Below are positions 26,988 to 57,984 of a stretch of DNA of 64,000 bases, one piece after another. The stretch comes from an uncultured Clostridia bacterium. GTDB taxonomy: Bacteria > Bacillota > Clostridia > Christensenellales > UBA1242. The first letter of the stretch is position 1; the number at the start of each line of letters is the position of its first letter. The DNA is taken from positions 16,145 through 80,144 of the forward strand of contig CALVTR010000002.1 of assembly GCA_944362965.1 (NCBI GenBank). Reading direction: 5' to 3'. The notes under the pieces were generated by a model that saw only the letters and a program-made list of their open reading frames with translations, did not search any database and was not told the DNA's origin. Made by a program: the position numbers and the translations under genes.

Positions 26988-27111
26988 CACTTTCCTCCGA
27001 AATAAAATTTATCTTTTTATAATCTTTAAAATAGCTTAAACCTTCGGGATTTTACGCTACTTTATCCGCCCTAAAAGGCAAATTTTATTCGCGGGGCTAG
27101 TGCAAACAAAA

Positions 27112-50011: not shown

Positions 50012-51670
50012 TTAGTCAAGAGTTACTATAGTGAGAATCATTGGACGACGTTTTGTGCGTCTATAGATAAAGTTTGAGATATTTCGCTTAAGTGATGCAC
50101 GTATTACCGCTGGTTCTACTCCGCGAAGGTCGGTCTCCTTGAGTGAGGCGATGATGCTTGCCTTAGCGTCTTGAACAAAGCTTTCTTGCTCATCAGCGTA
50201 TACCACACCCCTTGTGATTATAAATGGGTCGCCTGTAACTTCGCCTGCAACATTGTTGATAGTAACACATACAACGCATATACCATCTTCTGAAAGCTGT
50301 TTACGCTCTCTAAGAACATTGCTGTCCATATCGCCAATGCCCATACCATCAACAAGGCGTTGTCCTGCCTTGACGAAGCCAACTTCCTTAAGTGAATTTG
50401 GTCCAAGTTCCACTTGAAGTCCTAAGCTTGGAAGAAGGATATTCCTTTCGTCCATGCCAAGTGTCATTGCAAGCTCTTTATGAGTTTTTAAGTGTCTATA
50501 TTCACCATGTATTGGCATGAAGAACTTAGGTTTTACAAGGCTGTGCATGAGTTTTAACTCTTCTTGGCAAGCGTGCCCTGAGGTGTGAACTTCTGCAAGT
50601 TCGTCATAAATGACATCTGCGCCAAGTTTGTAAAGTGCATTGATAACGTTGTATACATTCTTCTCATTGCCCGGAATTGGTGATGCTGACAAGATTACCA
50701 GGTCATTTGGTCTTATCTTTACGCTCTTAAATTCGCCAGCCGCCATACGTGTTAGTGCACTCATTGGCTCGCCTTGACTGCCTGTGGTCATGATAAGAAC
50801 TTCCTTATCGTCAAGTTTGTCAACCTTTTCAAGCTCTACAATGTTCTCGCGATTGAAAGTAAGCTCGCCTATCTTCATGGCAACTTCGCTGACATTTATC
50901 ATACTTCTGCCAGTGAAGGCTATCTTTCTGTTATATTTCTCTGCAATATCCATGATTTGCTGCATTCTGTGAATGTTTGAAGCAAAGGTTGCAACGATAA
51001 TTCTGTTATTTGGATGATTTTTGATTATCTCGTCAAGAGTTCGCCCTACCGACTTCTCGCTCATAGAATAGCCTTTGCGGCATACGTTGGTGCTTTCACA
51101 TAAAAGTAAGTTTACACCTTTTCTTCCGATTTCACCAAGACGTGGAAGGTCGGTCATAACGCCGTCAATAGGCTCATAGTCAACCTTGAAGTCACCTGTG
51201 TGGACAACTGTTCCAACTGGGGTTGTGATTGAAAAGGCAAGAGAGCCTGCTATTGAATGGCTGACCTTGATAAACTCTATTGAAAAAGAACCTATCTTTA
51301 AAACATTCTTTGGCTTGACTGATATTGCCTTGTATTTTACCTTTGGATACTCTTTCATCTTGTTTTCAACGAGTGCTAAGGTAAGTCTTGTGCCATAGAT
51401 TGGAACGTTGATTTGTTGCAAGAAAAATGGCACTGCTCCGATATGGTCTTCATGACCATGTGTCAAAAGCAAAGCTTTGATTTTTGCCTTATTCTCAATT
51501 AGATATGACATATCTGGAATAACTATATCTACGCCAGGTAGGTCATCGTCTGGGAAAGTAAGTCCAGCGTCAACGACTATGATTTCGTCGTTATACTCAA
51601 AGGCTGTCATGTTTTTGCCTATTTCGCCTACTCCCCCTAAAAATGTTATTTTTAGTTTGTTATTATTCAC
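50012..51670 (-). CDS. rnj: ribonuclease J
   Basis: Metallo-beta-lactamase HGHEDHIGA motif, beta-CASP layout, 552 aa. GTG start after AAGGAG. Confidence 0.85.
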   Translation of the reverse strand: MNNNKLKITFLGGVGEIGKNMTAFEYNDEIIVVDAGLTFPDDDLPGVDIVIPDMSYLIENKAKIKALLLTHGHEDHIGAVPFFLQQINVPIYGTRLTLALVENKMKEYPKVKYKAISVKPKNVLKIGSFSIEFIKVSHSIAGSLAFSITTPVGTVVHTGDFKVDYEPIDGVMTDLPRLGEIGRKGVNLLLCESTNVCRKGYSMSEKSVGRTLDEIIKNHPNNRIIVATFASNIHRMQQIMDIAEKYNRKIAFTGRSMINVSEVAMKIGELTFNRENIVELEKVDKLDDKEVLIMTTGSQGEPMSALTRMAAGEFKSVKIRPNDLVILSASPIPGNEKNVYNVINALYKLGADVIYDELAEVHTSGHACQEELKLMHSLVKPKFFMPIHGEYRHLKTHKELAMTLGMDERNILLPSLGLQVELGPNSLKEVGFVKAGQRLVDGMGIGDMDSNVLRERKQLSEDGICVVCVTINNVAGEVTGDPFIITRGVVYADEQESFVQDAKASIIASLKETDLRGVEPAVIRASLKRNISNFIYRRTKRRPMILTIVTLD

Positions 51671-51831
51671 GTTTTGTCTCCTTTTATTGTTTATTTTTTA
51701 TATATATTCTTACAAATGAGTTTCAGCCTTCTAAAAGTTATGTCTGTCTTGTATTTAAACTAAAATACAAGACAAAATCATGAAAACATAAATTTTCATT
51801 TATATCGTTACATTAAAAAAGCAATCTTAGT

Positions 51832-52755
51832 TTATAAGATATACTTTGCGTCTTCAATTTTATCAACTTCCTCAAGACGTTTTGGTGAAAGAATTGTGTC
51901 GCTATCAACATAGAAACGCATCCCTTGACTTGAGAAGAACATCACCATTTCAAAGATATGAATTAGTGGTGAGATGAGCGGAAGTATTATGATTATTGAG
52001 TAAAGCCCTAGAACAACTGAAAGGACTATTGCAAGAAGGAAGATTATAAATGCTGTTGAAAATACCCTTGCACCCCTTCTTAGCACGGCACGCATGCCTA
52101 TCATAAACGATTTGAATACATTTTGATTATATACCACTTTAGCTGGTGCCCAGCCTGCATTGAAGGTCTCTTTGAACGCCATCAAAAGTGCTGGAACGAT
52201 GACAAAGGCAAATGGCATGATATAATCAAAGATTGCGTTATCTACGCGTGTAAGTCCCCACATACTTAGCACGATAAGTGCGTTGAATGGCATGCAATAA
52301 AAGACCTTTATTATTGAATAGGTCAAAGAATTTTTGAGTGTCTTTAGGTATGTGCCTGAGAAGCTTTGTTTTTGACATGATGACATATAGCCATACATCA
52401 TTTCACAAGTTACGTATTTGCCGATATTGAGCAAAAGTGGAAGCAAGATAAAAGATACTAGGCAAAAATAAATGCCTATACCTGCATTTGTGAAAATCTC
52501 TCTAAAGAATATGAGAACAAAGTCTATTGCGGCGGTCAGTCCGTTTGCTAGGCTGGAGCCGTAGAGTGTGCCGGTGTCAAATGTTCCGCTTAAGTTTGAC
52601 TCATTGTAAGCTATTATGCCTGCATCAAGGTAGCTGTTATAAAAAACACATAGAAGGGCTATGCATAAACCGATTGATAAAATATGGTATACAAGAAGCT
52701 TCCATACCTTATCAAAGTTTGCACATAATAATCTGACTGAATTTTTAAACATCAT
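51832..52755 (-). CDS. polytopic membrane protein, unknown function
   Basis: 307 aa with about 6 hydrophobic segments. Confidence 0.6.
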   Translation of the reverse strand: MMFKNSVRLLCANFDKVWKLLVYHILSIGLCIALLCVFYNSYLDAGIIAYNESNLSGTFDTGTLYGSSLANGLTAAIDFVLIFFREIFTNAGIGIYFCLVSFILLPLLLNIGKYVTCEMMYGYMSSCQKQSFSGTYLKTLKNSLTYSIIKVFYCMPFNALIVLSMWGLTRVDNAIFDYIMPFAFVIVPALLMAFKETFNAGWAPAKVVYNQNVFKSFMIGMRAVLRRGARVFSTAFIIFLLAIVLSVVLGLYSIIIILPLISPLIHIFEMVMFFSSQGMRFYVDSDTILSPKRLEEVDKIEDAKYIL

Positions 52756-52807
52756 AATCTTTGATTTCTCTCTTACAATATAAATAATTCTATAAGGTGT
52801 TTTAGTA

Positions 52808-52899
52808 GCTGCTCGGAAATGCCACTTTGAAAAAGTGGCAAAAGTTGCCTGAAGGGCAACTTTTTAAAATTTTAAATTAAAATTTTATTTCCGAGCAGC
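52808..52899. other. closed four-way-junction structured element, copy C
   Basis: 13-bp closing stem GCTGCTCGGAAAT/ATTTCCGAGCAGC around hairpins 52821-52839, 52840-52864 and 52866-52886 (8, 10 and 8-9 bp). Confidence 0.7.
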
Positions 52900-52983
52900 G
52901 TGCTTACCTAAGAAAAAGGTTGTGTCATGACTGCAAGCCCTGAACAACAAAAATATTATATTCTACCTTATAAACTTACTATT

Positions 52984-53012
52984 ATTATACAATAAAAATT
53001 TATATATTGCAA
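52984..53012 (-). promoter_or_regulatory. sigma-A-type promoter (TTGCAA-17-TATAAT)
   Basis: -35 at 53007-53012, -10 at 52984-52989. Gives a leader of about 220 nt that contains copy C. Confidence 0.55.
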
Positions 53013-53060: not shown

Positions 53061-53525
53061 TTAGTTTATAGAAAGGATTTTATAAGAAATTTCGCCACCT
53101 TCCATCTTTACTTTGATAGTGTCGCCTTTCTTATGACCAAGAAGAGCTGAACCAACAGGTGAAATATTGCTGATAATTCCATTTGCTGGGTCACTTTCAG
53201 TTGAACCTAAAATCTTATATTGAAGCTCTTCATCGAACTCTTCATCATAAAGCTTTACAGTTGAGCCAATGCTTACTGTATCACTTGCACCTTCTTGTTT
53301 ATCTATAATTTGACAAGTGAGAAGTATATCTTCCATTTCGCGGATTTCTGCTTCCACTTGAGCTTGTTCTTCTTTTGCTGCATCATATTCAGAGTTCTCT
53401 GAAAGGTCTCCAAATTCTCTTGCTGCACCTATTTTTTTGCTTACTTCCACCCTTCTTACAGTCTTATAGTAATTGAGCTTTTCTTCAAGTTGTTTCTTTC
53501 CTTCTCTTGTTAAAACATGAACCAT
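53061..53525 (-). CDS. greA: transcription elongation factor GreA
   Basis: LTREGKKQLEEKL...FGDLSENSEYDAAKEEQ coiled-coil N-terminus and C-terminal FKBP-like domain. Confidence 0.9.
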   Translation of the reverse strand: MVHVLTREGKKQLEEKLNYYKTVRRVEVSKKIGAAREFGDLSENSEYDAAKEEQAQVEAEIREMEDILLTCQIIDKQEGASDTVSIGSTVKLYDEEFDEELQYKILGSTESDPANGIISNISPVGSALLGHKKGDTIKVKMEGGEISYKILSIN

Positions 53526-57266: not shown

Positions 57267-57710
57267 ATGATAGATTTTATGGAAGAAGCAATTAAACAGG
57301 CAGAGATTGCCTTAAAGCACGATGAAGTGCCTATTGGTGCGGTGATTGTTAAAGACGGCAAAGTTATTGCAAAAGGATACAACAAAAGAGAAAAGACTCA
57401 AAATGCGCTGATGCATGCTGAGATTATCGCAATAAAAAAAGCCTGCCGAAAACTTAAATCCTGGCGACTTGATGGTTGCACTATTTTTGTGACGCTTGAG
57501 CCCTGCCCTATGTGCAGCGGAGCTATTGCAAATGCTAGAATTGCCCGTCTTGTTTATGCCTGCAAAGAAAAATCGTCTGGAGACAGCCTTTGTGAGAAGA
57601 TACTTTCAAGTACGCGGCTAAACCACAAAGTTGAAATTATTTATGATGAAAAGTATAGCGAAAAATGCAGCAGGATTTTAAGCGAATTTTTTAAAGGCAA
57701 GAGAAAATAA
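57267..57710 (+). CDS. tadA: tRNA-specific adenosine deaminase
   Basis: HAEIIAI and PCPMCSGA zinc motifs. The start could also be the Met at 57279. Confidence 0.85.
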   Translation: MIDFMEEAIKQAEIALKHDEVPIGAVIVKDGKVIAKGYNKREKTQNALMHAEIIAIKKACRKLKSWRLDGCTIFVTLEPCPMCSGAIANARIARLVYACKEKSSGDSLCEKILSSTRLNHKVEIIYDEKYSEKCSRILSEFFKGKRK

Positions 57711-57856
57711 ATTTTTAAATTTAATTATTTTTTAAATTTTTATTTTATTTTTACAATTTATTTTTATCTTTATTTATTTATATCCTTTATTTTTTATTTA
57801 GTTATATTTAATAATATTTTTTTATTTATATTTTTTAATAAAACCGCATGAAAAAA

Positions 57857-57941
57857 GCTCGGAAACGCATGCCATAGGCTTGCAAAAAGAAAGTTTCTAC
57901 TTTCTTTTTAAAAAATTGATTTATCAATTTTTGTTTCCGAG
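57857..57941. other. closed four-way-junction structured element, copy D
   Basis: 10-bp closing stem GCTCGGAAAC/GTTTCCGAGC around hairpins 57867-57883, 57884-57909 and 57910-57931 (7 bp with one T-T, 11 bp, 9 bp), with zero junction nucleotides. Confidence 0.7.
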
Positions 57942-57984
57942 CAATTTATAAAAAACAATATTTTTTAGCGACTATTTAAATTTA

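Follow-up and report, generated by a model that had tools for sequence, protein, structure and literature searches.

A four-way-junction palindrome in the probable leader of a clostridial membrane-protein gene: membership of a lineage-restricted family, probably evolving by template switching

What does a perfect four-way junction do between a promoter and a start codon? The question is raised by a nested palindrome, referred to as copy C, in the window, i.e., the whole stretch of 64,000 nucleotides analysed here, which comes from an uncultured Clostridia bacterium (contig CALVTR010000002.1, positions 16,145 to 80,144). An earlier note on this DNA had described the element as a 13-bp closing stem around three hairpins with one unpaired nucleotide, placed between the promoter and the ATG of a membrane-protein gene, and had implied a conserved structured leader RNA specific to that gene. 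The geometry agrees exactly with the sequence as read (Table 1). The remainder of this work concerns the surroundings of copy C, its relatives in the same genome, its state at orthologous sites in other species, and the readings that these allow.

Copy C and its surroundings

The three hairpins of copy C abut except for a single unpaired junction base, T52865. When the gene (minus) strand is folded as RNA, the minimum free energy structure is the four-way junction, at −48.6 kcal/mol, against a mean of −19.9 for dinucleotide shuffles (z = −7.99, 0 of 200 as good). The plus strand adopts the same fold (−50.8 kcal/mol, z = −9.83), because every helix of copy C is a perfect palindrome. Within the window, the closing-stem arm is matched exactly only by the two arms of copy C, and no sequence-similar copy of the element with its flanks was found elsewhere in the genome, the matches being chance AT-rich ones. 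Searches of Rfam, whether run with the gathering threshold or with E-values allowed up to 10, returned no family (best E = 0.47, far below gathering scores).

Several candidate identities were considered and rejected. No T-run follows copy C on either strand, by inspection of the sequence or in a terminator scan, which bears out the earlier statement that it is not a terminator; the lack of a U-run after the closing stem excludes an intrinsic terminator. A tRNA-like structure is rejected because helices of 8–13 bp and loops of 3–5 nt misfit tRNA geometry, and the tRNA covariance model has its only match in the window at 2429–2501, with none at copy C. A retron noncoding RNA is rejected on the grounds of some 75 copies (see following) and no adjacent reverse transcriptase. 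As for an assembly artefact, the arms of 8–13 bp are shorter than assembler k-mers and the observed states recur in independent samples; copy C itself is present in 14 independent assemblies of the same species. A weaker and imperfect structure with a CCGAAAT-like outer stem lies elsewhere in the window (26988–27102, −29.5 kcal/mol, z = −3.9), and may be a decayed member of the same family.

On the minus strand the gene order is greA, a spacer of 305 nt that contains copy C, the membrane-protein gene, a terminator-like hairpin, RNase J and an O-methyltransferase. The membrane protein has no family match in Pfam or NCBIfam. Its gene may be monocistronic, given the hairpin that follows it. The motif TTGC[AC]A-N17-TATAAT precedes the membrane-gene ortholog in 14 related species and the promoter is therefore real by comparative standards, so that the position assigned to copy C in the earlier note, between promoter and ATG, is upheld. 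Among near relatives this promoter is 97–100% identical (0–1 differences over 29 nt), and the flanking spacer differs by 15–30%. Most of these species have 31–57 nt between the −10 box and the ATG, two have 108 and 138 nt, and the window has 227 nt, its lineage having gained some 190 nt as an insert that separates promoter and ribosome-binding site. To judge by promoter conservation alone, copy C is most probably transcribed, within a 5′ leader of about 220 nt.

This insert contains more than copy C. A second hairpin, P1, has a T-run that ends 10 nt upstream of copy C and resembles a terminator, although it was missed by a simple terminator scan. Its folding energy is −8.8 kcal/mol here and about −16 kcal/mol, with compensated changes, in two relatives (L097 and L102). 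P1 may represent an attenuator, or else a greA terminator that has been displaced; from its place between the promoter and copy C, it might stop many transcripts short of copy C. No terminator was found between the greA stop codon and the promoter in this clade, unlike in L001, L002, and L009, where greA has its own. An outer inverted repeat, TATAAGG/CCTTATA, brackets this lineage-specific insert with P1 and copy C, and both arms of the repeat are kept in the window, L097, L098, L102, and L106.

Judged from the sequences compared, the leader of the membrane gene has been remodelled repeatedly across species. A different palindromic insert is found in L007 (CAKNRR010000001.1), where it brings the orthologous leader to some 138 nt; its closing stem measures about 20 bp (AAAATAAGAAAGA...TCTTTCTTTTATTTT), and it lacks the three-hairpin interior. 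The leader of L009 is 108 nt long.

Table 1. Features of the copy C locus (window coordinates)
Feature	Position	Strand	Description
RNase J	50012-51670	minus	3′ of the terminator-like hairpin
Terminator-like hairpin	51743-51776	minus	14 bp; between membrane-protein gene and RNase J
Membrane-protein gene	51832-52755	minus	Downstream gene; 307 aa, at least 5 hydrophobic segments
Outer inverted repeat, TATAAGG	52791-52797		7 bp with CCTTATA at 52966-52972
Copy C, nested palindrome	52808-52899		92 bp; four-way junction on either strand
Closing stem, 5′ arm GCTGCTCGGAAAT	52808-52820		13 bp with 52887-52899
GC-rich hairpin GCCACTTT-GAA-AAAGTGGC	52821-52839		8 bp, loop GAA
Middle hairpin AAAAGTTGCC-TGAAG-GGCAACTTTT	52840-52864		10 bp, loop TGAAG
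AT hairpin AAAATTTTA-AAT-TAAAATTTT	52866-52886		9 bp, loop AAT
Closing stem, 3′ arm ATTTCCGAGCAGC	52887-52899		Partner of 52808-52820
P1 hairpin with CTTTTTCTT	52910-52948 (hairpin 52919-52948; CTTTTTCTT 52910-52918)	minus	Terminator-like, inside the leader
Outer inverted repeat, CCTTATA	52966-52972		Pairs with 52791-52797
Promoter-like TTGCAA-17-TATAAT	52984-53012	minus	10/12 matches in scan
greA	53061-53525	minus	Upstream gene

A lineage-restricted family of closed junctions

The genome to which the window belongs (G000, a metagenome-assembled genome [MAG] of 1.37 Mb and 98% completeness) was searched with a structure finder of our own, which asks for a closing stem around abutting near-perfect hairpins and may miss imperfect copies. 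It returned 57 elements with perfect helices and 75 when one mismatch per helix was allowed, against 0–2 in composition-preserving shuffles. By number of inner hairpins, 75 elements have three, 7 have two, and none has four or five. The median element has 95 nt, a closing stem of 13 bp, hairpins of 8, 10, and 10 bp and loops of 3–4 nt; lengths range from 79 to 134 nt and closing stems from 9 to 32 bp, mostly with 0–3 unpaired junction bases. By crude gene calls, 63 of the 75 copies lie between open reading frames, the family thus being confined to extragenic DNA. By context, 43 are between tandem genes, 11 between divergent and 9 between convergent ones, 10 fall in doubtful open reading frame calls and 2 on the edge of a contig. 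Elements between tandem genes stand, in the median, 124 nt past the stop codon of the upstream gene and 271 nt before the start codon of the next, and a T-rich tail follows 4 of the 43 copies.

Family members share almost no sequence with each other, yet near-identical subfamilies exist. Copies A, C, and D belong to one diverged subfamily of about 23 copies, which have a CGGAA-type closing stem and GC-rich, AAAGAAAGC-type, and AAAATTTT-type hairpins; an alignment of 21 of its members with MAFFT gave no in-register solution. Measured against the G-rich strand, 19 of 22 copies of this subfamily have their hairpins in the same order, as do 14 of 18 when measured against neighbouring transcription; the two biases cannot be separated, as gene and replication direction are collinear. 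Such a bias hints at a strand-dependent role, which a purely shape-based module would not need.

Three of the near-identical subfamilies are found side by side within about 1 kb, and their flanks are likewise repeated. These subfamilies have the closing stems GAGAAGGCA, GCAAGCGAATG (reaching 32 bp), and AGAGCGAATGT, and they occur at C12:19034-20055, C2:80792-81183, and C4:99135-99847, and again at C9:9265-9877, C13:34966-35865, and C1:112316-112758. Rather than independent insertions, they seem to be components of one larger, composite repeat.

The phyletic distribution was assessed on samples of 60–200 kb from each of nine related genomes. The density is 5.5 elements per 100 kb in the window's genome and 1.5 in another genome of the same genus (G010), and no element was found in the samples of five other genomes of the genus, nor in those of three genomes of other families. 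Among the loci collected around RNase J orthologs (see following), only L002 and L022 have elements elsewhere. The family is lineage-restricted and patchy.

No enzyme that could mobilise it was recognised. Y1/RAYT transposases (Y1_Tnp, PF01797) have no match in the genome and do have matches in control genomes, and neither TnpB nor DDE_Tnp_1, rve, or IS110 transposases were found, negatives that are to be read with the fact that they concern a MAG, in which assembly frequently misses copies of insertion sequences. Seven tyrosine recombinases are encoded, not linked to elements. The only reverse-transcriptase signal in the genome is a partial RVT_1 domain at a contig edge (C11:755-1036, E = 2e-11, in an open frame of 183 aa), which is unlinked to elements as well. 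With boundaries as inferred, 70 of the 75 copies have no flanking direct repeat of at least 2 nt, the same as in a displaced control, and hence no target-site duplication was detected. Of the 75 copies, 3 have a GTAG motif close to an end, and none has CGTC there.

Among some 3150 stem pairs read on the plus strand, the mismatches are 12 G·T, 7 A·C, and 8 others. Relaxing the finder gives a similar picture, as allowing G·T adds 144 candidates, A·C adds 154, and the nonsense pair A·G adds 169; G·T adds no more than the other two, and there is therefore no population of strand-specific elements containing G·U pairs. Loop bases in transcript orientation show no strand asymmetry either (A 184/T 165, G 76/C 84). 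In neither the family nor the orthologs of copy C (see following) was a strand-specific RNA signature found, be it an excess of G·U, conserved loops and junction, or a fixed orientation. Pairing is maintained on both strands, as in DNA palindromes.

Orthologous sites and template switching

Eighty loci around RNase J orthologs were fetched, and about 34 of those numbered L001 to L042 keep the synteny of greA, membrane gene, and RNase J. In none of these approximately 34 species, whose membrane proteins are at most 84% identical to that of the window, does the spacer between greA and the membrane gene contain a four-way junction. Intermediate relatives were then found through the membrane protein. 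Copy C is at the same site in L097 (96% membrane-protein identity), L098 to L100 (94%), and L102 to L105 (91%). In L106 (90%) the outer leader is shared and an unrelated sequence replaces copy C. No clean empty site was observed, as the interior is replaced in L106 and the spacer is unalignable in more distant species. The structure is thus conserved at orthologous loci within the closest clade (at least 91% identity), a young one in which copy C is fixed, and not beyond it, and the conserved, gene-specific leader RNA implied by the earlier note does not agree with its absence from the syntenic species.

Where copy C is present, its interior differs among lineages. In gene orientation the hairpin order of the window is AT, middle, GC, and it is reversed to GC, middle, AT in L098 to L100 and in L137 to L139, which come from other samples. 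The closing stem has CTTGG/CCAAG in L098 vs CTCGG/CCGAG in the window, a compensated change. L102 and the nearly identical L103 to L105 have exact reverse complements as the loop of the middle hairpin, AGAAA in the former and TTTCT in the latter. The AT hairpin grows from 9 bp in the window to 12 bp in L097 and L102 to L105, with both arms longer. The stem of the GC-rich hairpin is identical in all four orthologous lineages. Copy D (57857-57942) offers a parallel: its ortholog in the lineage with 94% identity keeps the hairpin order and has several changes on both arms, including the T-A/C-G swap that is seen between copies C and D. Upstream of copy D, at 57704-57844, there is an AT-rich dispersed repeat of about 130 nt that has no relation to the four-way-junction family; by BLAST it is present many times in the same genome (e.g., C8:16244, C4:28228, C6:16923, and C16:22103) and also in most genomes of the genus.

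That swap had been presented in the earlier note as the cleanest covariation in the family. The difference between the closing stems of copy D (GCTCGGAAAC/GTTTCCGAGC) and copy C (GCTCGGAAAT/ATTTCCGAGC) is indeed one T-A pair replaced by C-G, but it is no evidence of an RNA function, since the two are paralogs with unrelated hairpins and template switching also produces paired changes. Better covariation is found between the true orthologs of copies C and D; it comes together with reversal of the hairpin order and inversion of loops, which argues against a strand-specific RNA.

Template switching between short inverted repeats is known to cause homogenisation of arms, expansion of arms, and inversion of the spacer, with spacers of 2–5 nt inverted preferentially when arms have at least 9–10 bp (PMC8604942, PMC13100816, PMC7202029). 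The changes between orthologs of copies C and D are exactly these published types of product, and the "compensatory" changes therefore need no selection at the level of RNA. Homogenisation alone would let paired changes accumulate at an approximately neutral rate.

The amount of change is another matter. Between the window and L097, L102, or L103, divergence is 1–3% in the stems of copy C and 0–3% in the promoter, against about 30% in the left part of the leader and 75–92% in loops and junction. Helices of copy C diverge about tenfold less than its flanks, which points to an additional constraint on the fold; conservation of this degree implies a constraint at the level of the host. Within the species (n = 14 contigs), the 213 flanking bases contain 8 SNP sites and the 92 bases of copy C contain 2. 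Of the latter, one is in a loop and the other in a junction-closing pair, with none inside helices.

Possible roles and comparison with known repeats

With the anatomy, family, phyletic pattern, flips, and helix constraint observed as described, copy C is a member of a lineage-restricted family of about 75 nested DNA palindromes and has constrained helices; it probably lies in a leader, evolves by template switching, and acts as an orientation-independent module. The unit is a segment of about 95 bp in which a closing inverted repeat surrounds exactly three abutting short palindromes. Through template switching, its arms would change in pairs and lengthen symmetrically, and single loops or the entire interior would be inverted, with selection keeping the helices intact in addition. 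At this locus, the insert of about 190 nt with copy C separates a conserved promoter of the σ70 type from the start codon of the membrane gene, and copy C would be a generic structural module that works in either orientation, not a riboregulator made for the membrane-protein gene. Its effect is most likely that of a passive, orientation-independent structural block at the membrane-gene leader. On the mRNA, a 5′-UTR junction of −48 kcal/mol could hinder exonucleases or processing; on the DNA, a junction-forming site could be bound by architectural proteins.

Other readings share part of this evidence. It is possible, if somewhat doubtful, that the three-hairpin closed junction is a functional module under host selection, a mimic of a Holliday junction read by a host protein on single-stranded DNA or on RNA. 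It might then serve the organisation of the chromosome or of replication, or insulate transcript boundaries, and would represent a previously unrecognised class of bacterial genome elements, beyond REP or MITE variants. A generic module at the level of RNA is rather unlikely. Like the enterobacterial REP stabilisers, the transcribed junction would protect transcript ends or mark processing sites, either orientation working because every helix is palindromic, and here the mRNA that it stabilises would be that of the membrane gene, at the 5′ end, or a read-through greA mRNA, at the 3′ end. This is consistent with the very stable fold, with helices far more conserved than flanks, with the intergenic position of elements soon after upstream stop codons in tandem pairs, with the lack of a terminator of greA's own in this clade, and with the bias of hairpin order relative to transcription, but it sits badly with the lack of G·U usage and of loop strand asymmetry, with the copies between divergent genes, which may be untranscribed, and with the rarity of T-rich tails. 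Improbable in our opinion is a site acting as DNA, which would adopt a Holliday-junction-like form on single-stranded or supercoiled DNA, be read by an HU-like protein, gyrase, or a recombinase, and owe its polarity to the direction of replication. Perfect Watson-Crick pairing on both strands would suit such a site, as would the 4H junction with 0–2 unpaired bases that exactly three hairpins give, and the genome has tyrosine recombinases. Hairpin order in subfamily 5 follows the G-rich (putative leading) strand, two copies opposing local transcription, but the collinearity of gene and replication directions deprives the polarity test of its power. In addition, the closing stem would matter only in the single-stranded state, and at the orthologous site the order of the hairpins is reversed while the element itself persists.

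It is very improbable that copy C is a cis-regulatory leader RNA dedicated to the membrane-protein gene, be it riboswitch-like or protein-binding. The element does lie between a conserved promoter and the ATG, it has a strong structure with helices conserved among near relatives, and the terminator-like P1 adjoins it. Against this, no relative below 91% identity has it in the orthologous leader, its hairpin order is reversed in L098, its loops flip and vary freely, and about 75 paralogs occupy every kind of intergenic context; moreover, perfect helices with loops of 3–5 nt and no internal loops leave no ligand pocket, and Rfam has no match. Least credible of all is a selfish mobile element of MITE or REP type, without host function, that inserted here by chance and is still decaying. 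The restricted and patchy distribution, the near-identical subfamilies, and a closing stem that resembles terminal inverted repeats (up to 32 bp) would fit, but constraint on helices at a fixed orthologous locus is unexpected of a decaying insertion, no Y1, DDE, rve, IS110, or TnpB transposase and no target-site duplications were found, and copy C is unique in sequence.

The preferred reading, that of a structural module shaped by template switching, makes copy C a cautionary case, as a striking fold and "covariation" in a leader do not make a riboswitch. In perfect DNA palindromes, template switching gives paired changes, arm growth, and loop flips for free, and these are therefore not evidence for RNA. 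New for the family is the direct view, given by the orthologs of copy C, of a loop and of a whole element inverted at one fixed site, along with helices whose conservation is about tenfold that of the adjoining sequence. A constrained four-helix architecture without a known mobilising enzyme could reveal a new structural signal on bacterial DNA or mRNA, and the insert with copy C illustrates how such elements lengthen and remodel 5′ leaders.

We found no description of four-way-junction or cloverleaf intergenic repeats in the papers searched, and comparison is with the closest known repeats. REPs are single imperfect hairpins of 20–40 nt, headed by GTAG or CGTC; they often form inverted pairs and are accompanied by a RAYT gene, and for REP/BIME/REPIN repeats protection of mRNA ends and binding of architectural proteins or gyrase have been proposed. 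The family described here resembles these proteobacterial repeats as short, abundant intergenic palindromes that give stable structures when transcribed; its unit differs in being a closed four-helix junction, without GTAG or CGTC heads and without a Y1 transposase. The likeness to MITEs (Correia, ERIC, Nezha) lies in terminal inverted repeats, here the closing stem of 9–32 bp, in the noncoding intergenic nature, in lineage-specific bursts, and in the capacity to land in leaders and alter expression. MITEs differ in that the present family lacks target-site duplications and, in this assembly, a parent insertion sequence or DDE transposase, and in that its internal architecture is conserved and not its end sequences.

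The pneumococcal BOX elements, which with RUP and SPRITE are likewise small interspersed repeats of a low-GC Firmicute, have the organisation boxA-boxB(n)-boxC, in which outer modules pair and inner ones fold alone; they have no clear mobilising enzyme or target duplication and are thought to affect co-transcribed genes (PMC3049150). They share with the present elements a highly base-paired structure if transcribed, with outer pairing and inner self-folding (PMC3049150). They differ in having conserved modules and a variable number of boxB, whereas here there are three inner hairpins, perfect helices, and almost unrelated sequences. The inverted repeats studied for template switching undergo the same arm and spacer changes as the orthologs of copies C and D (PMC8604942, PMC7202029, PMC13100816, PMC5941160), but those studies of quasipalindromes concern a mutational process on isolated repeats, and here one deals with a repeat family of fixed four-helix architecture. 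In conclusion, the element works like REP, BOX, and MITE repeats but departs from each kind in its testable defining features.
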